From Promethearchaeota archaeon (GTDB lineage Archaea > Asgardarchaeota > Lokiarchaeia > Sigyniarchaeales > SOKP01), in contig JBHLME010000139.1 in NCBI GenBank assembly GCA_048938445.1, positions 1-11,459 of the forward strand: a stretch of DNA of 11,459 nucleotides, written 5' to 3'. Positions 1 through 11,459 of this stretch are shown here, piece by piece. The notes under the pieces were generated by a model that ran no database searches, was not told the origin of the DNA, and saw only the letters and a program-made list of their open reading frames with translations. Both the position numbers and the translations under genes were made by a program. Positions within the stretch are counted from its first letter, which is position 1; each line of letters opens with the position of its first letter.

Positions 1-2
1 AT

Positions 3-692
3 CGTGCTAATTTCTTTAAAGATGTCATCATTCACGATGTTAATAATATCTTTCAAGTCATTCGTTCCTCGGGAGAATTATATTCTATTTATAAAGAGAA
101 ATCACTCGATTTAGAAAAAATCGACGATTTATTAAATATGATTAATGAGGCAGGTGAAAGAGGAATAAAGCTAGTTCAAAATGCTCGAAAGTTATCCCAA
201 ATCGAAGAATCCGAAACTGTTATTCAAAGTATTGATCTATTTGACATTTTAAACGCTTCTATAAAAATCATGAAAAAACATTCGCAAGAACAACAAGTTA
301 ACATTCAAATAGATGCAATTAGTCAAAATGTCAAGGTTCGTGCAAATGAATTATTACAAGACGTATTTGAAAATATTTTGGCAAATAGCGTGAAATATAA
401 CCAAAATCCAACCTTAGAGATTACTATTAGGATTTCTAAAATTCAAAAAAATGACCAAAATCATGTTAAGTTAGAATTTATTGATAATGGAATTGGCATT
501 CCCGATTTTAAAAAGGAATTGATTTTTGAAAAGGGATCTAAGGAAAAAGGCGGGAAAGGCCTGGGTTTTGGATTGTCCCTCGTGAAAAAAATCGTTGAAA
601 GCTATAAGGGAAAGATTTGGGTCGAAGATAGAGTTGAAGGGGATTACACTAAAGGAAGTAATTTTGTTTTATTAATTCCTGAAGCACTTTAG
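3..692 (+). CDS. Two-component sensor histidine kinase, C-terminal HisKA + HATPase_c part (5' truncated by window)
   Basis: The frame is open from nt 3 (RANFFKDVIIHDVNNIFQ..., H-box His at 33-35), so ATG138 is internal. N-box ENILANSVKY, G1 DNGIGI, F-box IFEKG, G2 GKGLGFGL, and GKIWVE..GSNF are all present. Confidence 0.95.
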   Translation, partial: RANFFKDVIIHDVNNIFQVIRSSGELYSIYKEKSLDLEKIDDLLNMINEAGERGIKLVQNARKLSQIEESETVIQSIDLFDILNASIKIMKKHSQEQQVNIQIDAISQNVKVRANELLQDVFENILANSVKYNQNPTLEITIRISKIQKNDQNHVKLEFIDNGIGIPDFKKELIFEKGSKEKGGKGLGFGLSLVKKIVESYKGKIWVEDRVEGDYTKGSNFVLLIPEAL

Positions 693-939
693 TTGATTTT
701 TAAATGATATAAATTTTCAGGAAAAAGAAAAGACGGAACATTTTCCTAATGTCATTGATACTTTGTCATGTTTTTTTAATCAATTTTAGAATTTCAGGCG
801 AAAACGTGATCTCTAGTCTCCACATCATGTTTTATAAATTATTTAATAAATTTTATATGAAAAAATACTAGATAATATTTAATAATACTAAATATTATAT
901 AATATACATATCATTATTAATAATTAAAATAATTTTTAC

Positions 940-2556
940 ATGATCAAAATGAATGACAAAGATAATGATGAATTAATAAAAATTTCCTTAAATATTCCCA
1001 AGTCAATTGTAAACCTTGTTGATAGAGAGGCAGATATGGAGAGACCTCAACTTAACAGGACGCAAATGTTAATAAAAATGATCTTGGCTTACCAAGAACG
1101 ACATTTAAAAAAATTTGAGCAAAAAATGTATGAGAGTACATTAAATCATCCTTCTTTTAAAAGAAAAATGTATGAAACTGTATATGATTCACGGAACTCT
1201 GATGTATATGCATTAATATTTAAAATTATTTTTCTTAGAAGAAAACATAACATTAATGATTTTATCGGCAACAATTTAGATATTCTTACTTCTGATTACT
1301 TCAAACCTCTAATTGGAATCGATATTCAAATACTTTTAAGACAAGTACGGGGTATAAAACATACACTTCAGGTGTGGGATATTGATATGGAAGATAATTT
1401 TAAGAAATTGGTATCAGGATGGTCTGATGGGGCCCATGGTGCTATTATTATCTTAGATTTAACCTCTCCGGAAAATTTCGATGAAATTAAGGGTTGGATT
1501 GATGAATTAAGATTAAGTAAAAATAATTATGAAATTACCATACTTCTCATTGGATATAAGGCTAACGAGCACGAAGAATCTGTAATTGATTTAGAAAAAA
1601 TTGATAAATTTACGAGTGATAATAATATCTATTACATGGAACAATTAGGTTCTTCTCTTAACGATGAAATTGATTGCTTTAACGTACTCACTAGTCTCGT
1701 GGAAGGTTTAGATTTATTTATTAAAAAAGAAATAGTATTTAGACCAGGAGAAGTAATGAAGATTAGGGAACTTATACAAAAGTGGAATAACATACATTTA
1801 AAAAATAAGTTGCTGGATTTAGCCACTAAATATTCCCGCTTACAAGTAATCGAAATGGCAGAAGAATGCGATTTAGATGAGGAAAAGATTCTACCCATCG
1901 TGAAAGAAATGATTGAAAAAGGCGAGCTTAAAGCAAAATATTATGAGAGTACTCGATCTGTCGTATTTAGGCAAGATCTTTATCAAAATCGTGATGAAAT
2001 CGAGCAAGTTCAAAAAAAACAAATAATAACGAATTTTAAAATGAAAATACTAATAATAACACCTAGAAATGTCGACATAAACGAATTTCTTAATAGAGAT
2101 TTTAAAAATCGATATGTATCGAATCATATATTAACAACAGGTGTAGAGATTTTAAGAAGGGATGTAGAATTTGAACCAGGGGAAATCGCAATTCTTTCAG
2201 TTTGGTATGTTAAAGATGAATCCCGGTTTAGTTTTATTAAAAGCACTTTTTACAAGGGTTCTGCTGGTGCGATATTTTTCTTCGAACTAATGGCACCCGA
2301 CACATTCGAGGCGATTAAATTAATGATAGATGACGTTAAAAAAGCAATTTCGAATTTACCCTTTGTTTTAATAGGCCTAAAAGACGAAATATTGGATGAT
2401 TCTGGCGTCAAGCTTGATCAGGCTAAAATCAAAAAATATGTAAAAAAATTGGGTGGATTCTATTTAGAAACTGAATTAGATAAAAAAAATGAAATTGATG
2501 AGGCATTTCGAGAGCTAACTCGACGTATAATCGATTTTAGACGCAGGTATTATTGA
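940..2556 (+). CDS. Multidomain protein: ribbon-helix-helix + degenerate Rab-like small GTPase + PCI/winged helix + second degenerate Rab-like GTPase
   Basis: RHH pattern KISLNIPKSIVNLVD...NRTQMLIKMILAY (~976-1098). Rab-like domain 1 (~1216-1700): IGID, TLQVWD, GAHGAIIILDLT, ILLIGYK. PCI-like LKNKLLDLATKYSRLQVIEMAEECDL..VKEMIEKGELKAKY..VVF (1798-1968). Rab-like domain 2 (~2035-2540): LTTGVEI, LSVW, RFSFIKSTFYKGSAG, PFVLIGLK, YLET, EAFRELTRRII. Confidence 0.85.
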   Translation: MIKMNDKDNDELIKISLNIPKSIVNLVDREADMERPQLNRTQMLIKMILAYQERHLKKFEQKMYESTLNHPSFKRKMYETVYDSRNSDVYALIFKIIFLRRKHNINDFIGNNLDILTSDYFKPLIGIDIQILLRQVRGIKHTLQVWDIDMEDNFKKLVSGWSDGAHGAIIILDLTSPENFDEIKGWIDELRLSKNNYEITILLIGYKANEHEESVIDLEKIDKFTSDNNIYYMEQLGSSLNDEIDCFNVLTSLVEGLDLFIKKEIVFRPGEVMKIRELIQKWNNIHLKNKLLDLATKYSRLQVIEMAEECDLDEEKILPIVKEMIEKGELKAKYYESTRSVVFRQDLYQNRDEIEQVQKKQIITNFKMKILIITPRNVDINEFLNRDFKNRYVSNHILTTGVEILRRDVEFEPGEIAILSVWYVKDESRFSFIKSTFYKGSAGAIFFFELMAPDTFEAIKLMIDDVKKAISNLPFVLIGLKDEILDDSGVKLDQAKIKKYVKKLGGFYLETELDKKNEIDEAFRELTRRIIDFRRRYY

Positions 2557-2747
2557 TTAATAAAAATCTTGATTAACAGTTATCAATGCCCAATTATCTG
2601 AAAATAATAAATATTCAATATCATGCTCAAGTATTAACCTGACCAAACTCATAAATAGGAAATTTAATATTTCCAATTGATTTTATTATAAGCAACATTT
2701 GAAATGTAATTATTACAATCTAACAATAATGGAAGAATTTAGAAAGA

Positions 2748-2753
2748 AGGGGC
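2748..2753 (+). promoter_or_regulatory. Shine-Dalgarno-like purine motif AGGGGC
   Basis: Lies 7 nt upstream of ATG2761. Confidence 0.45.
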
Positions 2754-2760
2754 GATATAA

Positions 2761-3333
2761 ATGGGTAAAGAACAGTTAATCACCGCCTTAAAGTTAATAG
2801 AACGAGATTTGATTGAGAACTATACTTCATACGAGGAACCGCAATTGGCTCAAGTAATATCTCAGTTTCAACGCAAGATCTTGGAGCTCAGAAAAAAAGA
2901 TCGAGATGTCCACGATAAACTGGAAACGCTGAGCGCGAGCGATCTTACCACGGTCATGAATGAAATTGATTTATGTTTGCTGTCGCCACCGGCTCAAAAA
3001 GCCAAGCTCGTGTTGGTTCTCAACAGCTTGATCATCCAAGAAGGGAAAGAAACGCAATTATTACAGATGATCAACAAGTTTAATTTCTTGAGAACGTCCT
3101 TCAAGAAATCGATGGCGAATGAAACCGCAGCAATGGTAATTACTCCAGAGAACATTGATGAAATCAGGAGTGAGTGGTTGGCGCACGATTCACCCGAGGA
3201 CTTGGCGGAAGATATGATAAATATGAACTTGAAGGATTTAAGAACAATTACAAAACCTTGGAAGATCAAGAGCAGGTCAAAAGATGGATTGATTGATATG
3301 ACGATTAATTACCTCAAAACCCAAAAAGAATAG
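2761..3333 (+). CDS. Hypothetical alpha-helical protein with possible C-terminal SAP/HeH (Rho-N-like) DNA-binding motif
   Basis: 190-aa ORF with an SD-like motif. Its coding pattern is conserved in the second copy, which shows many synonymous changes. The C-terminus MNLKDLRTITKPWKIKSRSKDGLIDMTINYL fits a helix-extended-helix pattern; that domain call is tentative. Confidence 0.8.
   Translation: MGKEQLITALKLIERDLIENYTSYEEPQLAQVISQFQRKILELRKKDRDVHDKLETLSASDLTTVMNEIDLCLLSPPAQKAKLVLVLNSLIIQEGKETQLLQMINKFNFLRTSFKKSMANETAAMVITPENIDEIRSEWLAHDSPEDLAEDMINMNLKDLRTITKPWKIKSRSKDGLIDMTINYLKTQKE
2955..3318 (+). repeat. Direct repeat copy 1 (~360 bp) of segment at 6902-7266
   Basis: Hand alignment of 2965-3318 vs 6913-7266 is gap-free, with about 42 mismatches in 354 nt (~88% identity). 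Confidence 0.97.
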
Positions 3334-3560
3334 ACTAAATGATGATTTTAAAACATGAATAATTTGAGTTTGGAATATTAAAAAAAAAAATCCTTATAGA
3401 TTACGTTGCTTATTGAAAATGATTTTTAACCTTACTTTAATGGATTTTAGTGCTAGTAAAGCTATAAAATAGAGATTTCTATGTAAAAAATCCTAGATTT
3501 CTCTAATTAACTCCTTTTAAATTCAACAAAATAGAATTTTTTCCAACTTTTTTTTACTAG

Positions 3561-3697
3561 AATTAGGCCATCCAAATCCTTATTATATCCATTTAGTCAT
3601 TCCTAATTTGCCTATAATGTATTAATATAGGTTTTATTCTTATTAGATTGATTTAGGCTTTCCTAATTATTCTTAAATTTATTTGGCATGCCTAATT
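3561..3697. promoter_or_regulatory. Cluster of four palindromic TTAGG-N4-CCTAA-type boxes (DtxR/IdeR/SirR-family-like operators)
   Basis: 3561 AATTAGGCCATCCAAATC; 3591 ATTTAGTCATTCCTAATT; 3651 ATTTAGGCTTTCCTAATT (perfect core); 3680 TATTTGGCATGCCTAATT. Each is within 1 mismatch of the core. Confidence 0.7.
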
Positions 3698-3833
3698 TGA
3701 TATAAACATTTAATAATGAAGATTTTTTATATAAAAATATTTGATAAAATTAAGTTGTTTGAAAAAGAATCGATCAGATTCATGATTATCAAAAATAAAT
3801 GCTGATAATAAAATTAAAATTCAATGAGAGAAA

Positions 3834-4472
3834 ATGCTAAGCCGGTTCGAGATGCTATTTAATATATTAGGATATTATCTTTTATTCATCATTGCTCTTA
3901 TTTTCATGAGAAGGAGAACTAAATTACCTAAAGGATCAATTTTAGTCAAAAAGACGCCAACAAGTAGAGATAAACAAGCTCCTGGTAACCGTTGGTCTCA
4001 ATTAAGTCTAGCATTTGGAAATGGTTTTTTAATTGGAGTAGAAATGTATATTTTAATACTCACAATTTTCGATGCTTGGAAACCTGAATTTTCATTCTCG
4101 ACTATAAATTTCCCTATATTTATAAATTGGGCAGGGATTATTGGGCGGTGGCTCTCTATTTGCTGGGAAGCCTCAGTATTTTATTATAATGTCAATTATA
4201 CAGTATTTTGGAAACCAATACAAGATGAATACGTGCTAGCTACTGGTGGACCCTATAAATATATCCGACATCCGATGTATGTCAATAAAATGATAATATA
4301 TTTTTTCCTGTTTGCGGCTACGGGCTCATGGTTTATTTTTATCGGATTGCTCGGGTTCCTTCCGGTGCTTTACCAAGCTAAGCAAGAAGAAGCATTGATG
4401 CGAGAAACATTTGGTAACATTTACGAGGATTACATGTCCAGAACGGGACGTTTTCTACCCAAATTAAATTAG
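3834..4472 (+). CDS. Isoprenylcysteine carboxyl methyltransferase (ICMT/Ste14/PEMT)-family integral membrane methyltransferase
   Basis: Several hydrophobic segments, plus the hallmark LATGGPYKYIRHPMY and EEALMRETFGNIYEDYMSRTGRFLP motifs. Confidence 0.93.
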   Translation: MLSRFEMLFNILGYYLLFIIALIFMRRRTKLPKGSILVKKTPTSRDKQAPGNRWSQLSLAFGNGFLIGVEMYILILTIFDAWKPEFSFSTINFPIFINWAGIIGRWLSICWEASVFYYNVNYTVFWKPIQDEYVLATGGPYKYIRHPMYVNKMIIYFFLFAATGSWFIFIGLLGFLPVLYQAKQEEALMRETFGNIYEDYMSRTGRFLPKLN

Positions 4473-4731
4473 AAATTTTAGTAATATTTACTTAAGTATG
4501 GAGAAGACACTTTTTTTCAAAAAAAAATTTGTAGATATTGAGATTTTGAGTTTTTGAGATAAGTTATATTTAACAAAATTAAGAGTAATGAAAATCCTAA
4601 ACATTTTAATCAAACCTTGTATAAACTTTTTTCATTTCTATAGTGAAATAATTTATCTTCGATAAAAAGAAGCGATTTTTAAATACTATTATTTTATATT
4701 AATTATCACTGAAAGAAATGAGGTAATATGA

Positions 4732-5385
4732 TTGTCAAAAAGTTCAATATTAGATGATTTTAAAATAGATTTTCCTGGTGTTTATCGATTTATTGGATTT
4801 CATCAAATTTTAGAAGATTCAAATTATCCATTATATGTGGGAAAATCTGGAGATACTGAAAAGGTTTGGAATTATATCCGTGGTGGAAGAAAGGGAAATG
4901 GACCACAGATGCTAAAAGGACGGATTTTAAGACATTTAAATGATGATGCGGGTGTAATTAGTACGATTATTGATAAAATTAATTATTTAAAAAGCTTAGA
5001 ATATTGGATTGTCAATCCAAATGATTATGATCAAGTTGATTTATTTTTAGACGTGGTAAGGTATTTGGAATATTATATTAGAACTAATAAAAAAACATAT
5101 TATGATGAGATCATTAATGTACAAATTCAGGAAATAAAACCAAGTGTAGATGTAGAACAAATTGTTAAAAAAATTATTAAAGATAAACACGTTATTGAAT
5201 TCTCACAATTATTTTCGGATGAAGAAAGAGAATTTTTAAATTATTATTCGGTGATCACTTCAACACCCATTAAAAATTTGATTAATTTTAGAAGGTATAA
5301 TACTGCAAAAGATTTAATTGATCAATTCTTTGAAAGCTGGAAAAAAATAACAAAAGATAATTATTTCTGGCATAAAATTTCTTAA
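4732..5385 (+). CDS. GIY-YIG superfamily nuclease (stand-alone, UvrC-N-like motifs) with C-terminal extension
   Basis: PGVYRF...LYVGKS...LKGRILRHL...YLEYYI...IIN supplies the GIY, YIG, Arg, His, Glu and Asn elements. TTG start with GAGGT at 4720-4724. Confidence 0.75.
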   Translation: MSKSSILDDFKIDFPGVYRFIGFHQILEDSNYPLYVGKSGDTEKVWNYIRGGRKGNGPQMLKGRILRHLNDDAGVISTIIDKINYLKSLEYWIVNPNDYDQVDLFLDVVRYLEYYIRTNKKTYYDEIINVQIQEIKPSVDVEQIVKKIIKDKHVIEFSQLFSDEEREFLNYYSVITSTPIKNLINFRRYNTAKDLIDQFFESWKKITKDNYFWHKIS

Positions 5386-5610
5386 TCTAATGGTTAAAAG
5401 TGGCGATTTATCATGGTCTTTAGTATAATCTAATTACAAGCGTGCCAGATTCAAAAAGATATAAAGATTATCTTGAAATACTAATAATCGCATTGATTTG
5501 AATATTTAATATCTTAAAAAAAAATTAAGAGACGCACTTAAGTGAATTCCTCGCAATTTGATGGATAACTTTATTAATGCGCGTTATTTATCAAGAGTAA
5601 AGGTGAAATC

Positions 5611-6906
5611 ATGTCTAATCAACCTTACGAGATCAATGAAGCGGGACAGAAATTTATCGCAGATATGGAAGATATATTAAAACAAGAGATTAAAGTAGGA
5701 CGATATTCAAGAGAAATTCATGTGAGCGATGGGAACATAATTTCTGTTAATTTTTCATCAAGGAAAATAAGTAAACTTCCTGACAGCCTTTATTATCTAG
5801 AATCATTAGAAAATTTAAACTTAATGGAAAATAAAATTACTAAATTATCTGAATCAATTGGTAATTTAAAAAATTTAAAGAATTTAATAATATTTGGTAA
5901 TCCCATAAAAACACTCCCTGAAAACCTGTCTTCCTTAATAAAATTGGAAGAAATTAACGTGAGTTTTACAAAAATATCCATTATACCTGAATGGTTTGAA
6001 AACTTCACTAATTTAAAAAAATTAGAAGCTCTAAATATTAATTTAAAAGTCATTCCAGAATGCGTGAGACAGCTAAAGAATCTACGAAATTTAGAATTAG
6101 ATAGCAACAAGATACCTCAAATACCAGAGTGGATTGGTGAGCTTACAAATCTTAAAGTTTTAGGTTTATGCTCGAATCCTATCAGCACGATTCCTGATTC
6201 ATTAAAAAATCTTGTAAACCTTGAAACACTTCTTTTACATGCTTGTAAACTTGAGTTCCTTCCCGATTTCGTGTGTGATTTAAGTAACTTAGAATATCTT
6301 GAACTTGCAGGTAATAATCTTAAAACACTTCCTAAAGACCTCGGAAAACTACGCTTATTGAGAGATATCGACATTCACGATAATAAAATCACCAGCTTGC
6401 CAGAATCAATAAAATTGTTAAAAAATCTTGAAACGCTCAACCTTGAATTTAACAACTATAAAACCTTACCCGAATCATTAATGGGAATGAAAATAGCCCC
6501 ATCATTATGGTTGTGCAATAATAAGTTATCAAGTCTTCCCGATTGGTTTGCTCAAGACAATAAAGTAGGGGAATTATGTTTATCAGACAATTTGTTTGAA
6601 GAATTTCCGGAGCAATTAAAATATCTCCCTAACCTGGAAATTTTGTATATAAACAATAATAAAATCAAGGTAATTCCAGAATGGATAAGCGAGATACCAC
6701 TTTTGGAGGTATTGGACGTGTCAAACAACATGATCACGGAATTACCAGGTTTTTTAAAGGATCTTGAATTGGATGAACTTACTATAACAGGTAATCCAAT
6801 TAAAAATGTCCCTGAATGGGCCGCCTCATTAAACCGATTAGAAAGATTAAAGAAAGAACGCGAAGTATTCTCCCAGGAAAAAAAAAGAAACATAAAAAAT
6901 CCATGA
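5611..6906 (+). CDS. Leucine-rich repeat protein (~16 repeats of ~23 aa)
   Basis: Repeated LxxLxLxxNxIxxLPxxIxxLxx units. AGGTGA SD-like motif at 5601-5606. No signal peptide or TM segment is evident. Confidence 0.97.
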   Translation: MSNQPYEINEAGQKFIADMEDILKQEIKVGRYSREIHVSDGNIISVNFSSRKISKLPDSLYYLESLENLNLMENKITKLSESIGNLKNLKNLIIFGNPIKTLPENLSSLIKLEEINVSFTKISIIPEWFENFTNLKKLEALNINLKVIPECVRQLKNLRNLELDSNKIPQIPEWIGELTNLKVLGLCSNPISTIPDSLKNLVNLETLLLHACKLEFLPDFVCDLSNLEYLELAGNNLKTLPKDLGKLRLLRDIDIHDNKITSLPESIKLLKNLETLNLEFNNYKTLPESLMGMKIAPSLWLCNNKLSSLPDWFAQDNKVGELCLSDNLFEEFPEQLKYLPNLEILYINNNKIKVIPEWISEIPLLEVLDVSNNMITELPGFLKDLELDELTITGNPIKNVPEWAASLNRLERLKKEREVFSQEKKRNIKNP

Positions 6907-7266
6907 ATTGATATTGATTTATGCTTGTTATCACCACCGGCTCAAAAAGCCAAGCTCGTTTCGGTTCTCAACAGCTTGATCATCCAAGAAGGGAAGGAAA
7001 CGCAATTATTACAGATGATCAACAAGTTTAATTACTTGAGAATGTCGTTCAAGAAATCAACGGCGGAAGAGCCCGAAGCACTGGAAATTACTCCAGAGAA
7101 CATTGATGAGATCAGGAGCAAGTGGTTGGCATACGATTCACCCGAGGACTTGGCGGGAGAAATGGAAAGAATCAACTTGAAGGATTTACGAGCAATTACA
7201 AAGCCTTGGAAGCTCAAGAGCAGGTCGAAAGAGGGCTTAATTGATTTGACTATTAATTACCTTAAA
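6902..7266 (+). repeat. Direct repeat copy 2 of 2955-3318
   Basis: Homology begins at CATGAA (6902), overlapping the LRR stop codon. There is one extra T near 6908-6909; after that the alignment is gap-free at offset 3948. Confidence 0.97.
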
Positions 7267-7287
7267 AAAATAAATAATTTGAGTTAA
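6907..7287 (+). pseudogene. 5'-truncated paralog (about aa 66-186) of the 2761-3333 gene; may be translated from TTG6925 or by read-through from the LRR gene
   Basis: Reads IDIDLCLLSPPAQKAKLV... vs MNEIDLCLLSPPAQKAKLV... in copy 1. It lacks the first 65 aa, and the ATG equivalent to Met66 (6903) is out of frame by 1 nt. Confidence 0.6.
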
Positions 7288-7350
7288 TTAAGAAATTTGA
7301 GATAAATTAATAGCATATTTTTTTAATTTATTAAATGGATTAATCAAAAA

Positions 7351-7857
7351 TTAATATATTTTTATATCTGTCTTATTATTTAAATCTCTCTCAATCCAGT
7401 TATCTACAATATCATAAGCTTTATATAAATATTGATATAAAAAAAAACCATTATTATTTTCTTCACTTAGTCTATCATATAATTCATTAAAATCTCTAAT
7501 ATTATAATTTTCATAAATTTCATTAAGTGATAGCCTTGCAATTTTCTTATGACTCCATTTTCTCAACCTATTTTCTTTCTTGCTATCCATAGTATCAATA
7601 TCTTGCCATGCATTACATTCGATATTAATATCATATTCAGAAATGGTTATAACAATATTTCTTCCAATATGATTTTTATACCATCTTACCATTAATTCTG
7701 GAAGATCCCATCTCCATTTAGTATATTCAAAATCCTTTTCTCTCATATTAGGATTTTCTGCAATTTGAGCGGATATCATACTCTTTATTTGAATTTTAAA
7801 TAAGGTGAGTATTCGATCTAATTGATAATTTGTAAATTTTTTTGGATACTCGAACAT
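7351..7857 (-). CDS. Hypothetical Trp-rich protein; candidate antitoxin/immunity partner of upstream toxin-like gene
   Basis: 168-aa ATG ORF in very AT-rich DNA, starting 9 nt after the stop of 7867-8214. No family recognised; function is inferred from position only. Confidence 0.7.
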   Translation of the reverse strand: MFEYPKKFTNYQLDRILTLFKIQIKSMISAQIAENPNMREKDFEYTKWRWDLPELMVRWYKNHIGRNIVITISEYDINIECNAWQDIDTMDSKKENRLRKWSHKKIARLSLNEIYENYNIRDFNELYDRLSEENNNGFFLYQYLYKAYDIVDNWIERDLNNKTDIKIY

Positions 7858-7866
7858 ATTTTACAA

Positions 7867-8214
7867 TCATAACTCATAATTTTGATTACTAAAATTATAT
7901 AATCCAAAAATATCTAAACTATCTCTAGCACACGCTTCTATCCCCCCTCCTGGCTGCTCATACGCTGGCGCTACAGGTCTTAAATCTATTTTATCTAATT
8001 CAGGCATATTTTGAACGGGAATAGGTCCAATTCTAAATTTAGGAGTAAGAGGTAAAGCTAATAAATTTTTTGCCTTCTCTGAGGTTTCATATCGATGTGT
8101 AGTAAACCACGTACATCGAACTTTTTTGTTTAAGGTCTTTATTTGTCTATTCTCAATAATATTTCTTTTTTCTTCATCATCTGATATATAACGATAAAAA
8201 TTAATCCGAGCCAT
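7867..8214 (-). CDS. Small ADP-ribosyltransferase/NAD-glycohydrolase-fold toxin-like protein (Ntox10/TNT-like)
   Basis: FYRYIS..E (beta1 Arg), WFTT..Y (aromatic-T-T strand), AKNLLALP..PKFRI, and VAPAYEQPGGGIE, which resembles the TNT-family AP-x-F-x-QPGGG-x-Q motif but ends in Glu. Confidence 0.65.
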   Translation of the reverse strand: MARINFYRYISDDEEKRNIIENRQIKTLNKKVRCTWFTTHRYETSEKAKNLLALPLTPKFRIGPIPVQNMPELDKIDLRPVAPAYEQPGGGIEACARDSLDIFGLYNFSNQNYEL

Positions 8215-8411
8215 ATTTAATTTTTAAAATTTTTTAGATATATAAATAGAAGTGATATTTAGAAAAAATGAAATCATAGAGAAATAAATTTATTTTTATG
8301 ATGCACTAACAACAATTTATTAATTTGACACTAAATAATTAAATATTTATGAATAGTCTTTAAAGTCATATAATTTTTGAGTAATATTTTAAACAAAGAA
8401 TATTAAAATTA

Positions 8412-10133
8412 TCAACCTATTATTTGTCGAGCATTTTGTCTCCAATTATTCAGACTTGTTACTCCGACACCTTTTACTTGGCCTGCTACGAGTTTAACAT
8501 TGCAGTTTAACAAATCTTTTACAGTGAAAATATTTGCAGAATTTAATAATTTTACTTTAGCTTTTCCTATACCTGGAATGTCGGTCAGGGTATATTTTGA
8601 ATCTTTTATCAAAGTTAATTGAGGTTGCTCCTTTTTCATTAAATCAGGAGTAGAATCAATTTGAATTTCTTCGCTTGCATCAGAACCACATTCTGCACCC
8701 TTTAATCCTTGTTCTTTTAACATCTCAATATTTGATGAAGTATATTCAAATAATTTGATATTATTAGCATCTAAGACATCTTGAGCACCTGAAGTGATTG
8801 AGTTTGGTGGGCATATAAAGAATGCAAAGTCTCCTTTATCTGGTTTATATTCAATATTTTTCATTCGTAAGAGCCAATTCGCAAATTTTTCAATTTTGCC
8901 CTTCATTCCTGATCGATGCATCATTGAAACTTCTCCAAAAGCTCTTTCTCTATGTGTTGTTCGCTTAGTTTCGGCACTTGCTACTATATCTACATCATAT
9001 CCGCCAACTTTTTTTATTTCAGGTTCTACGTGATTGAATCCCCTCTTTAAAAGTTCAGTCTTAATGAAGTTTCGTGCATCTTCTTCGTAGATCTGTCTAA
9101 TATCGTAATCTGTATAACCAATATATCCCATACTATCAATTACATTTGCTATACACTTAAGGAGGTCTCTAGGTAAGTAATACAAAATAGAGCTTTTAAC
9201 TCGAGATATGAACGTATTGCGATCTTTGTAATCAAAGCCAATTTTATCAACAACTTGATTAATAATTGCGTCTTTTTCCCCTGCAGTCAAATTACCTAAT
9301 ATAATTTCTTTCCTATCAACAATAGTTCCGAAATTTTTACTACGACTTTTAAGCTCTGTCCACTCCATTTTGTTTGGGTTTTCTAAACACGAGACTAATA
9401 TGTAAAGTTTTTGTCTTGCAAATTGCTCCATTAAATAACGGATGAATTTTTCTAAAAATAATTTAAGTAGAACATTTGATCTATCAATTTCATTTAAAAA
9501 TTGTATTTCATCAAACGCTATTACCACCAAATAATCTAAATCTATAAGAAGCTTTATTAATCCATAGAATAAGTTACTTATCATATTGCTTTCGAGTTCA
9601 TCACCATAAAAGAATTCATATGCCGTATCTTGGTCATTTGGATCTAAAGATGAGAGCTTTATGAGATTATCAATTATTTTTTTGTTTTTAAAGATCTTAA
9701 ATAACTTATTTTTTCTTTTCGCAGCTGGAAGTTTTTCCATCACATCACGGATTGGATAGGATTCATTATTTACATCAAAAAGCTGTTCGATAATTTTCCC
9801 TATAAATATAAACCAAAATTCTTCAACATTTTCCGAGATAGCTTTAAAATCAAAAAAAAAGAATAAATTTGAACCCGGAGCGAGTTCTTCCATATAGTCT
9901 TTCACTTGAAATTTAATTAGAGTAGTTTTTCCTGCACCATTCGCTCCAATAATTGGTCGAATTTGTGTAACCTTTTGATTATACACATTAAGAATGTCTT
10001 GACGGAATATTTCTGAGATATCTTTATTTAAGAAATTAGAACTTGCCTTTATTCCCTCATCACTCGTAGATTTTAGGGGATGCATTACTTTACGTTCAAG
10101 ATAAATCCATTTTTGGGGAAATCCTTGCTCCAA
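8412..10133 (-). CDS. P-loop (AAA+/archaeal-ATPase-like) NTPase fused to PD-(D/E)XK/Mrr-like nuclease-fold domain and C-terminal helix-hairpin-helix domain
   Basis: Walker A GANGAGKT (9947-9924). Walker B VVIAFDEIQ (9528-9501). REase-like YEEDARNF..KRGF..GGYDVDIVA..AFGEVS..AFFICP..ITSGA..NNIKLF (~9089-8745). HhH LTDIPGIGKAKVKLLNSANIFTVKDL..VKGVG (~8590-8415). The true start may be upstream, at ATT10169. Confidence 0.85.
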   Translation of the reverse strand: MEQGFPQKWIYLERKVMHPLKSTSDEGIKASSNFLNKDISEIFRQDILNVYNQKVTQIRPIIGANGAGKTTLIKFQVKDYMEELAPGSNLFFFFDFKAISENVEEFWFIFIGKIIEQLFDVNNESYPIRDVMEKLPAAKRKNKLFKIFKNKKIIDNLIKLSSLDPNDQDTAYEFFYGDELESNMISNLFYGLIKLLIDLDYLVVIAFDEIQFLNEIDRSNVLLKLFLEKFIRYLMEQFARQKLYILVSCLENPNKMEWTELKSRSKNFGTIVDRKEIILGNLTAGEKDAIINQVVDKIGFDYKDRNTFISRVKSSILYYLPRDLLKCIANVIDSMGYIGYTDYDIRQIYEEDARNFIKTELLKRGFNHVEPEIKKVGGYDVDIVASAETKRTTHRERAFGEVSMMHRSGMKGKIEKFANWLLRMKNIEYKPDKGDFAFFICPPNSITSGAQDVLDANNIKLFEYTSSNIEMLKEQGLKGAECGSDASEEIQIDSTPDLMKKEQPQLTLIKDSKYTLTDIPGIGKAKVKLLNSANIFTVKDLLNCNVKLVAGQVKGVGVTSLNNWRQNARQIIG

Positions 10134-10461
10134 CCTTTGGATCTGTACTTTAAGCTTGCTTCGACTAATGTTAATAGCCCCTGGAAGTTATTTTATTTGA
10201 TAATTTTTTTATAGATAATAACCTCAGATTCATTCTCTAAAATTTAAAGGTATAATTATATTAACTGAGATCTTGTTTTTAAAATTTGAGTTAAATATTT
10301 TCAAATAATGTCATTCTATTTTCATATTTTAACCAATCATTATAAATTTTAATCTGAGAGAAAAAATTAGTGGTTTTTATAAATTTGATTTCTAACAAGC
10401 TATTAAGCTAGAAATTCAATTGAATTTATAAGAGAAAATGATAAATTTTATAAGATTTTAA

Positions 10462-10758
10462 ATGAAATTTAAGACAGAATATAAAAAATTAATATATTTA
10501 GATATTGGTGGGAATTGGGGATATGTTTTAATGCATATTCGTGATGATAAAGGAGTTAAAAAACTTAGATTATCCAAATGTAGAAAATATCCCGGTTTTC
10601 CTAAAACTGAAAAATATCTTTGGCAAGAAATAGACCCAGTCCATATAGAACATCTCAGCCAAGTAGGTAAAATTAATTTTAAAAAAGAACAAGAAATTGA
10701 AACTATATTTCAAAAACTTAAAGAAGAGCTCAAACTATTATATGATGAAAAGGAATAA
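10462..10758 (+). CDS. Small hypothetical protein, possibly PC4/YdbC-like ssDNA-binding fold
   Basis: 98-aa ATG ORF divergent from the ATPase. Apparent beta-strands, then KINFKKEQEIETIFQKL leading into a C-terminal helix. The fold call is weak. Confidence 0.65.
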   Translation: MKFKTEYKKLIYLDIGGNWGYVLMHIRDDKGVKKLRLSKCRKYPGFPKTEKYLWQEIDPVHIEHLSQVGKINFKKEQEIETIFQKLKEELKLLYDEKE

Positions 10759-11207
10759 TTCTAGTAATTATTTGACTTTATAATTACACCAATATGAAAT
10801 TACAGTCAGTTGAAGTTTTCCTTAATCAAACAGCAATATTTTAATATCTTGTATTAATAATAAAATCCTCCTTAAATGAGATCTAATTTTTTGTAGGTAC
10901 AAAACGATTCAATCTAAATTTTAATTTCAATAAAAATAATTTATTTATCATGAATATGTCAATCTTATTTTCAGTTGTATAATGCGACAATTGCTAAATC
11001 AAATACGCTTCTCTTAGATTTTAAGTTAGTAATAAAATTTATAATATGGAGATATTAGGTCTACGGTTCTGGGAAGTGAAAAATTACAAATGTTTTATAT
11101 AATTATTCAAATAAAGAAGTACGTAAAATGTTAGCTACTATTCACATGGTGATGAAAAATTCCTCAAGGAATTTAAAAAGGTATTTTTAAAATACTAGTA
11201 GAGAATT

Positions 11208-11236
11208 TATACAGTAAATATACAGGAAAACTGTAT
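11208..11236. promoter_or_regulatory. Candidate operator: tandem TATACAGKAAA x2 plus inverted half-site
   Basis: TATACAGTAAA (11208-11218) and TATACAGGAAA (11219-11229), plus ATACAG-N5-CTGTAT (11220-11236), about 50 nt upstream of an RHH gene. Confidence 0.4.
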
Positions 11237-11284
11237 TTTTCAGCACCTAAATTAAAATTACACTAAATAGGTGAAATATGAATA

Positions 11285-11459
11285 ATGACTAATAGTAAAA
11301 ATTCCGTTAAGAGACCAATTCAAGTGTATTTTTCGGAAGAAGAAAAAGAAGCAATAAAGAAACATGTTGAGAACATAGTTCCCAAAACGAACTATTCTCA
11401 ATTCATAAGGGAAGCGATTTGCGAAAAGATGAGAAAAGCTGAACATCCTGAAATATTTA
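11285..11459 (+). CDS. Ribbon-helix-helix (CopG/MetJ/Arc-like) protein, 3' truncated by window; not in ORF track
   Basis: Own translation: MTNSKNSVKRPIQVYFSEEEKEAIKKHVENIVPKTNYSQFIREAICEKMRKAEHPEIF..., i.e. strand IQVYF, helix, then the SQFIREAI helix. AGGTGA at 11269-11274. Confidence 0.85.
   Translation, partial: MTNSKNSVKRPIQVYFSEEEKEAIKKHVENIVPKTNYSQFIREAICEKMRKAEHPEIF

Follow-up and report, generated by a model that had tools for sequence, protein, structure and literature searches.

Small GTPases of the Asgard type have drawn study as precursors of the switches that control membrane traffic in eukaryotes. A stretch of 11,459 nt from a Promethearchaeota archaeon (assembly GCA_048938445.1, contig JBHLME010000139.1, positions 1–11,459; the whole stretch is referred to here as the window) contains a gene at positions 940–2556, the product of which joins Rab-derived pseudo-GTPase domains and a PCI-type winged helix to a prokaryotic ribbon-helix-helix (RHH)-like, predicted DNA-binding domain. 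The question raised by this gene is what Rab-like domains do in such a protein after losing the motifs for binding GTP. An initial annotation had described the protein as an RHH domain fused to two apparently dead Rab-like GTPases that bracket a PCI domain, and we have followed up each of these parts, their origin and the family to which the protein belongs.

Two Rab-like domains lacking nucleotide-binding motifs

The Pfam Ras profile (PF00071) matched the protein over two stretches (E 6.1e-34), the best being residues 370–531 on profile positions 2–161 of 162, and Pfam Roc matched with an E-value of 1.4e-13 (best stretch 125–207). A sequence search of the PDB aligned residues 119–254 to Rab35, Ypt1 and Rab1 (best Rab35, E 6.1e-17), and residues 365–536 to Rab39B (E 5.3e-13), Rab23 and Rab11 (E about 5e-13). 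Residues 1–362 and 260–362 were modelled (mean predicted local distance difference test score, pLDDT, of 73.4 or 69.6 across the two models) instead of the full-length protein, because MAFFT placed every single-domain GTPase, as well as domain 1 of the family members, onto domain 2 of the full-length sequence. In Foldseek, the model of residues 1–362 gave a fold match to Rab1b (E 2.6e-11). By G-domain sequence and fold similarity the protein belongs to the Ras/Rab superfamily, while the prenylatable Cys of the strict Rab family is absent, as domain 1 is internal and the protein ends in ...RRRYY, in agreement with the Cys-free C-terminus noted originally.

The nucleotide-binding motifs were compared with those of two intact paralogs in the genome, named here after their contigs (C111 for domain 1, C5 for domain 2). 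In domain 1, aligned to Rab35 and the C111 gene, the P-loop region reads LRRKHNIND, the switch-I Thr is replaced by Leu, WDTAGQ by WDIDME, GNKxD by GYKAN (GNKND in Rab35) and ETSAK by EQLGS. In domain 2, aligned to the C5 gene, GAAAVGKT is replaced by TPRNVDIN, DIGGQ by YVKDE, NKAD by LKDE and SAK by ELD. Neither domain contains the G1 P-loop GxxxxGK[ST], nor G3 DxxG or G4 [NT]KxD, the corresponding positions being DIDM and YKAN in domain 1, and YVKD and LKDE in domain 2. All Rab-family surface motifs and degenerate motifs quoted in the initial annotation are present, at places that align to the elements of intact GTPases, and its reading of two Rab-derived domains without nucleotide-binding motifs was borne out by Pfam, the PDB alignments and the comparison with C5-type relatives.

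Against the consensus of 12 C5-type relatives, domain 2 matched 3 of 21 G-motif columns versus 70 of the 152 others (Fisher one-sided p 0.004), and in columns invariant among these 12 sequences it matched 3/20 G-motif columns versus 54/107 other columns (p 0.003). These counts indicate that the loss of G motifs in domain 2 is specific and goes beyond chance; the positions at which it still agrees cluster in switch I, in the strands between the switches, in switch II and in the last helix. A GTPase fold from which the G-motif residues are absent, as found here, defines the class-i pseudoGTPases, which neither bind nor hydrolyse nucleotide (PMC12490416), and both Rab-derived domains are predicted to be unable to bind nucleotide. 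One could suppose that these domains bind a nucleotide or small ligand in a non-canonical manner, the protein being an ordinary ligand-sensing RHH regulator, and in domain 2 the Thr of switch I is indeed retained and switch II is well conserved. We regard this as improbable, since in domain 2 the P-loop Gly, Lys and Ser/Thr, the Asp and Gly of DxxG, the Asn and Asp of NKxD and the SAK residues are all replaced, and since in domain 1 all five motifs are replaced and the P-loop/helix-1/switch-I stretch is modelled with a pLDDT below 50 at residues 100–102 and 112–126.

Origin of the two G domains

The genome (4.6 Mb, 256 contigs, 96.5% complete) contains 53 matches to the 538 aa protein, and a jackhmmer search gave 97 small-GTPase-like (G-domain) hits, about 94 of them non-truncated. 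A crude regular-expression check found a canonical P-loop in 89 of the 97; the eight hits without it were domains 1 and 2, three truncated fragments, one harmless AxxxxGKS variant, and degenerate genes on contigs C92 and C30. The C5 paralog is a stand-alone GTPase of 174 aa with intact G motifs and is 41% identical to domain 2, and the C111 paralog, the intact N-terminal GTPase of a 660 aa protein, is 36% identical to domain 1. Mutual identity among the 12 C5-type sequences (one from this genome and 11 from relatives) was 83–97% (median 91%) with invariant G motifs, and the identity of domain 2 to each of them was 38–43%.

A quick maximum-likelihood tree was calculated for 68 G domains. Of these, 56 came from this genome, chosen by E-value rank without the three truncated fragments, and the others were family members and orthologs. 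Domain 1 formed a clade with domain 1 of two other family members (Shimodaira-Hasegawa approximate likelihood-ratio test, SH-aLRT, 96), within the C111-type GTPases (97), and domain 2 fell inside the C5-type clade (99) on a long branch (1.25). The tree thus indicates that domains 1 and 2 descend from different families of Rab-like GTPases, the C111-type and the C5-type, respectively. Domain 2 paired with the stand-alone degenerate gene on C92 (SH-aLRT 95), but this pairing was flagged as a meeting of long branches and is therefore not relied on.

Several of these genes have features of their own. The C111 gene (C111:25178–27166, minus strand; locus L004, orthologs L025–L035) represents the parent family of domain 1, and encodes in order an intact Rab-like GTPase, a V-F-x-P-G linker, a long repetitive region rich in Pro, Glu and Lys, and a C-terminal zinc-ribbon-like CxxC...CxxC; C111-type matches were present in 118/134 genomes of the same taxonomic family, and the V-F-x-P-G linker that follows domain 1 is common to these GTPases too. 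The C92 gene (C92:5355–5879, minus strand; locus L053) encodes a stand-alone, C5-type-derived pseudo-GTPase of 175 aa, for which open-frame orthologs (L054–L057; 44–60% identity), all without P-loop, DxxG and NKxD, were found in four of five genomes of the same genus, so that dead Rab-like genes recur in this genus. On C30 (5180–5965, plus strand) an open reading frame (ORF) of 262 aa encodes a G domain with degenerate motifs (GGESSLEKNS and WDLNPAKD, NKxD being absent) and, behind it, a tail that is rich in Cys and resembles a zinc ribbon. No obvious partner was seen in the neighbourhood of the parental C5 gene, which includes a 900 aa coiled-coil ORF and an aspartate-kinase-like ORF (by-eye reading). 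The genome also has 17 Roadblock/LC7 hits, Roadblock-GTPase fusions and an ESCRT-II EAP30 hit above cut-off; the Roadblock/LC7 and EAP30 hits, together with the non-truncated G domains, point to an archaeon of the Asgard type.

A small family with a shared loss in domain 1

The gene at 940–2556 is genuine, as its 538 codons are open without interruption in AT-rich DNA (25–34% G+C in the window), and it also turned up on a second NCBI contig and among the contigs of a second study. A 608-base contig of the second study covers positions 1795–2402, the junction of winged helix and domain 2, with 0 differences, and a 535 aa copy lies on a separate contig of 26,853 bases with only two substitutions (A165T and E212D); the fusion of winged helix and domain 2 is thus not an assembly artefact. 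The NCBI-derived members of its cluster are 535 aa long and begin at Met4.

A search with an N-terminal profile among 5.8 billion proteins (proteins >105 aa) gave four clusters, namely that of the 538 aa protein (four members) and three proteins of 357–363 aa that end after the winged helix. An exhaustive representative search gave a partial look-alike of 357 aa (P0003; BLASTP E 1e-51, collinear over residues 7–344), and a metagenome scan gave loci L022 and L023, which are identical in the aligned gene. The L022 homolog is a complete ORF of 368 codons in a 7.8 kb contig; it stops directly after the winged helix, the next ORF lies 550 bases further on, and tblastn with domain 2 detected no second G domain at this locus. 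The two dead Rab domains bracketing the PCI region, as initially annotated, occur together only in this genome's version; the second is absent from the other three family members.

Further searches gave no additional member of the family. Queries of word-indexed proteins with the full-length sequence or with residues 1–110 returned only the protein itself, an NCBIfam scan of the 538 aa protein gave no family model, and a pattern scan of the genome contig collection found no relative. Among 40 relatives, including five genomes of the same genus that are 68–94% complete, a whole-protein search found only single-domain or other GTPases. In 400 genomes of the phylum, a profile reaching from the N-terminus through the winged helix detected only C111-type GTPases, with stop-free matches never beginning before model position 57 and those starting at positions 19–49 carrying 1–4 stops. 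The N-terminal profile gave five partial matches in the same 400 genomes (E 0.002–0.01, 18–19 bits), which were treated as chance.

In all four clusters the N-terminal domain and the winged helix are found together with a domain 1 that is degenerate. Identity of the 538 aa protein to the family members was 56–60% in the N-terminal domain, 45–50% in the winged helix, 27–30% in domain 1 and 8–18% in the linker. None of the four has GK[ST] or DxxG in domain 1, and two derived states are common to all, GNKxD having changed to GY[KR] and ET to EQ. These shared states place the motif loss in domain 1 before the divergence of the family (35–37% identity), since when it has been kept. Intact G motifs in close orthologs would have spoken against the initial annotation; instead the three other members share the loss in domain 1, including the replacement of Asn by Tyr in NKxD and of Thr by Gln in ETSAK.

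Could the protein nevertheless be a recent fusion without function, in which two GTPase genes captured behind an RHH gene are now degenerating? Such a history would fit the long branch of domain 2, the occurrence of the form with two G domains only in this genome and in near-identical copies, and a ratio of non-synonymous to synonymous polymorphism (pN/pS) that is not significantly below 1. Yet the 538 codons have stayed open although domain 2 has diverged from its parent by about 60%, the changes avoid the fold core and the models stay Rab-like, and three clusters at 35–37% identity keep the RHH/pseudo-Rab/winged-helix core as complete ORFs. As these clusters have the same motif loss in domain 1, which argues against simple decay, we consider this explanation very unlikely. 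The sequence comparisons instead indicate that this lineage makes Rab-derived pseudo-GTPases and keeps them under selection.

The PCI-type winged helix

The assignment of a PCI domain stood in part, as it holds for the winged-helix subdomain but not for a bipartite PCI domain. The Pfam PCI profile (PF01399) matched residues 273–344 with 25.5 bits, above its cut-off of 22 (28.8 bits in the genome scan), and the precomputed Pfam list assigns PF01399 to two of the four family clusters. In the AlphaFold2 model of residues 260–362 (mean pLDDT 69.6, core 82–86; core 84–96 in the model of residues 1–362) a long helix is followed by strand-helix-helix-strand-strand and a C-terminal helix. Of the 44 rows listed by Foldseek against the PDB, 41 belonged to structures of the COP9 signalosome, of the 26S proteasome or its lid, or of complexes that contain eIF3, although the matching chain itself was named as a PCI subunit in few rows only (eIF3a/c, Rpn6 and CSN4). 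The remaining rows were two from an entry titled Plant-Complex-C-5b and one MarR regulator, and the best E-value over all rows was 4e-4. Modelling thus agreed with the folds first annotated for both parts, with Rab1b matched by residues 1–362 and PCI-complex entries by the winged helix. The N-terminal helical-repeat subdomain of PCI proteins is absent, with a single long helix (272–297) between the G domain and the winged helix, and on these models the PCI part lacks the bipartite build of a complete PCI domain and consists only of the winged-helix subdomain with flanking helices.

For archaeal proteins, this PCI variant of the winged helix has been described as an oligomerisation module (PMC10936438). 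In this genome the PCI model gave six further matches in four other ORFs, on contigs C127, C116, C97 and C67, and a search with the winged helix alone gave just one weak second match (E 0.0035). One ORF of 812 aa (C127:16325–17242, minus strand) carries three tandem PCI-type winged-helix matches (39.9, 35.2 and 22.9 bits), and is a possible oligomerisation partner. The same module follows Rab-like domains in the metagenomic proteins P0072 and P0083, and occurs in tandem in P0081 and P0095. In P0072 and P0083 the P-loop Lys of the Rab-like domain is replaced by Arg (G-x4-G-R), and a coiled region precedes the winged helix, which suggests that weakened G domains are more widely associated with this type of winged helix.

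The N-terminal RHH-like domain

RHH regulators and PCI scaffolds are well established, and many RHH dimer structures have been solved. The N-terminal strand of the protein, I-K-I-S-L-N-I-P, shows the RHH-like alternation of hydrophobic and polar residues, and is followed in the monomer model by helices at residues 21–33 and 40–68. K14, S16, N18 and the N39-R40-T41-Q42 sequence are invariant in all four family clusters. A homodimer prediction for residues 1–60 passed the mark used with a score of 0.55, versus a best of 0.00 in three controls; among proteins of solved structure, 20 of 30 one-chain pairs and one of 23 single chains reach this mark, counts that are only rough because our own alignment of three rows was the input. 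The runs agreed in at least 89% of contacts, with a partner pLDDT of at least 72. In the predicted dimer a symmetric antiparallel strand pairs over residues 12–21 (16 with 16, 18 with 14, and 20 with 12–13) and helix 2 packs on helices 1 and 2 of the partner, giving the strand-helix-helix topology and the antiparallel two-stranded ribbon of RHH dimers. Because so many RHH dimers have been solved, passing this mark shows a likeness to them, and not binding by this copy.

Comparison by hhalign of the three-row N-terminal profile with nine RHH_1 hits from the same genome gave a weak match over 36 columns (P 7.7e-4), in a register that places strand on strand and NRTQ on SRSE. In a protein atlas, residues 1–90 scored 0.78–0.80, which is below lead level, and the four rows included a single RHH_1 cluster. 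We consider it likely that the N-terminal domain is an RHH domain.

Proposed mode of action

Since the Rab-like domains have lost their GTP-binding motifs, control of genes by this protein would probably be tied to protein contacts rather than to GTP. Our preferred reading, held with middling confidence, is that of a predicted one-component transcription regulator, in which an RHH dimer is combined with a pseudo-GTPase/winged-helix platform and the input is protein contact. The RHH domain would be tethered to a platform made up of pseudo-GTPase 1, which would be nucleotide-free and of class-i type, the PCI-type winged helix and, in this genome only, the second pseudo-GTPase. Two chains would pair via the RHH strand, and DNA would be read by K14, S16, N18 and the NRTQ helix cap. 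Instead of GTP, the pseudo-Rab and winged-helix modules would bind one another or further proteins, for which the partners of the two parental GTPases and additional proteins with a PCI-type winged helix are candidates, and these contacts would set the oligomeric state and hence the occupancy of DNA sites. The sequence data themselves show the domain make-up, the motif loss, the origin of each G domain and the conservation of the family; we infer that the chains dimerise, bind DNA and partners but no nucleotide, and have a regulatory output. The initial annotation had likewise proposed a one-component regulator, with modules that may act as sensors or decoys for GTPase partners, which is a reasonable hypothesis. 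The 97 small-GTPase-like domain hits, 17 Roadblock/LC7 hits and six PCI-type matches of the same genome are possible partners.

A more specific version would be a transcription factor wired into the Rab-like network, where the dead Rab domains capture regulators or effectors (e.g. Roadblock or longin proteins) via switch/interswitch faces kept from two different active GTPases, the state of a trafficking-like GTPase system is read out at the DNA and the winged helix builds a higher-order assembly. This we find unlikely at present.

Several points weigh against the contact-driven regulator in general. The switch/interswitch identity kept by domain 2 also spans core strands, and may therefore reflect folding and not a binding surface. 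Only four clusters are known, so that conservation rests on few sequences, and the structure models are only moderately confident on their mean pLDDT. The variants found comprise four synonymous and six non-synonymous changes, giving a pN/pS of 0.37 with a binomial p of 0.12 on contigs with a depth below 5; these data come from contigs of four runs of the second study, which leave 940–1364 uncovered and have a 1-base and a 2-base gap in one partial record. The RHH assignment of the initial annotation finds support in the dimer prediction and the weak profile-profile match, but no Pfam or PDB sequence model recognises it: the hhalign probability was only 25%, Pfam RHH models gave 0 families when searched against three family N-termini with E up to 10, and a PDB profile search with the N-terminus returned no RHH, only an unrelated hit at an E-value of 1.3. 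Finally, comparison of the window with the L022 contig showed neither a conserved motif in the upstream regions of the two genes nor a conserved gene neighbourhood.

Upstream region and gene neighbourhood

Positions of the features within and upstream of the gene are collected in Table 1. The borders drawn initially for the four domains (residues 13–53, 92–255, 287–343 and 366–533) agree with the models and hits within a few residues.

Table 1. Features of the 940–2556 gene and its upstream region, by position in the window
Feature	Residues	Position	Strand	Basis or remark
Upstream intergenic region, very AT-rich		693–939		Presumed promoter, possible operator
Whole coding sequence	538 aa	940–2556	+	Alternative start Met4 at position 949
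N-terminal RHH-like domain	11–53	970–1098	+	Strand IKISLNIP, helix 21–33, turn, NRTQ cap, helix from 40
Helical linker	54–91	1099–1212	+	8–18% identity to family; pLDDT <50 at residues 59–90
Pseudo-Rab domain 1	92–262	1213–1725	+	Pfam, PDB alignment, paralogs, model, tree; each of the five G motifs degenerate
V-F-x-P-G linker after domain 1		1726–1755	+	V266, F267, P269, G270 invariant in family
Long helix, PCI-type winged helix (Pfam 273–344) and C-terminal helix	273–362	1756–2025	+	Pfam, AlphaFold2, Foldseek
Pseudo-Rab domain 2	364–535	2029–2544	+	G1, G3, G4, G5 replaced; switch-I Thr kept

The region upstream of the gene contains many AT-only repeats. A 10-mer, AGATAATATT, is common to the upstream regions of this gene and of the L022 homolog, but when the proximal 120 bases were shuffled with their dinucleotides preserved, a shared word at least as long arose in 95 of 500 trials (169/500 for the whole regions), and the 10-mer was therefore rejected as evidence for an operator. 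The genes next to the L022 homolog encode an AAA ATPase, an unassigned ORF and an ORF with a Fic-like motif (by-eye reading of the sequences), and as these differ from the neighbours in the window there is no conserved operon to lean on.

In the window, the gene is preceded on its own strand, at a distance of 247 bases, by the C-terminal part of a histidine kinase (3–692, plus strand; HATPase_c, E 1.3e-21), and some 200 bases downstream of it begins a 190 aa ORF of no assigned family (2761–3333). This ORF overlaps a 300-base direct repeat (2961–3260 and 6909–7208, 88% identical), which gives it a paralog of 120 aa at 6925–7287, and the two bracket methyltransferase-like, unassigned and leucine-rich repeat (LRR) genes. 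The first of these (3834–4472, plus strand) encodes a membrane protein with a PEMT match (E 1.4e-7) and a weak match to isoprenylcysteine carboxyl methyltransferase (ICMT; E 0.0014), an odd neighbour for a Rab-like gene without a prenylation site. A 431 aa protein consisting almost entirely of leucine-rich repeats is encoded at 5611–6906 (plus strand; LRR_8, E 9.2e-38), and at 8412–10133 (minus strand) a 573 aa protein has a C-terminal helix-hairpin-helix domain (HHH_5, E 8.7e-7), a P-loop reading GANGAGKT and weak matches of the STAND/AAA type (NPHP3_N, E 2.4e-4).

These neighbours bear on a further explanation, as RHH domains are also found in centromere-binding proteins and antitoxins. The protein could be a DNA-anchored scaffold, with the RHH domain as a handle for dimerisation and DNA tethering and the rest recruiting or sequestering proteins at the DNA, or neutralising a partner in the manner of an antitoxin. 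The domain facts fit this equally well, the C-terminal part of ~480 aa is far larger than the usual sensor domains, and its winged helix is of the kind described for oligomerisation (PMC10936438). The window, on the other hand, holds no ParA-like or toxin-like neighbour, and PADLOC gave no convincing hit among its nine proteins, none for the 940–2556 protein and only a weak AbiLi match (E 0.0013) for the protein at 8412–10133; together with the changed neighbourhood at L022 this leaves the scaffold doubtful in our view.

Comparison with known systems

Tandem pseudo-GTPase domains, pG1 and pG2, have been described in p190RhoGAP (PMC5593906), and the class-i pseudoGTPase domain of AAGAB binds partners (PMC12490416). 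Like the protein studied here, both are multidomain proteins with a G fold that has lost its G motifs, used there for protein contacts, and p190RhoGAP also has two such domains. They are, however, eukaryotic, stem from other GTPase lineages and have no fused DNA-binding domain or PCI-type winged helix, and the absence of nucleotide binding has been measured for them, whereas for the archaeal protein it is predicted from sequence. The Asgard Rab-like GTPases, including Roadblock and longin fusions (PMC10933270), comprise the source families of both G domains but keep their G motifs.

The winged helix resembles that found in PCI subunits of eIF3, the proteasome lid and the COP9 signalosome, including the preceding and following helix; those subunits have a helical-repeat half that is lacking here, and no MPN partner or lid-like complex is implied. 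P0072 and P0083 share the winged helix after a Rab-like domain, but have no RHH domain, have a P-loop that is only partly changed (DxxGQ is kept in one) and a long coiled region in between. Among RHH regulators, NikR has two domains. The MetJ/Arc/CopG regulators, including archaeal CdrS (PMC7439475), have the same strand-helix-helix of ~45 residues, in which polar and hydrophobic residues alternate along the strand and helix 2 bears an N-R-[ST]-x cap. As in these small regulators, the RHH-like domain at 940–2556 is predicted to form an intertwined dimer; in place of their small ligand- or toxin-binding tail, however, it carries ~480 aa of pseudo-GTPase and winged-helix domains, and it lacks a Pfam RHH match.

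We found no paper on the combination of RHH, pseudo-GTPase and PCI-type winged helix in main texts, although supplementary domain tables could list it. The main text of the Asgard GTPase survey (PMC10933270) does not mention pseudo-GTPase, PCI, winged helix or ribbon. Among the papers searched none joined Asgard and pseudoGTPase, and the two joining archaea and pseudo-GTPase concerned unrelated subjects. What is new here is a rare combination, known from four clusters, of known kinds of parts. If the protein binds both DNA and a GTPase partner, it would provide a simple handle for finding the contacts of the parental GTPases. In that case it would also be an example of pseudo-enzyme signalling outside eukaryotes, and should the protein prove to be wired into the Rab-like network, it would represent a prokaryotic forerunner of the pseudo-enzyme decoys of eukaryotic signalling.

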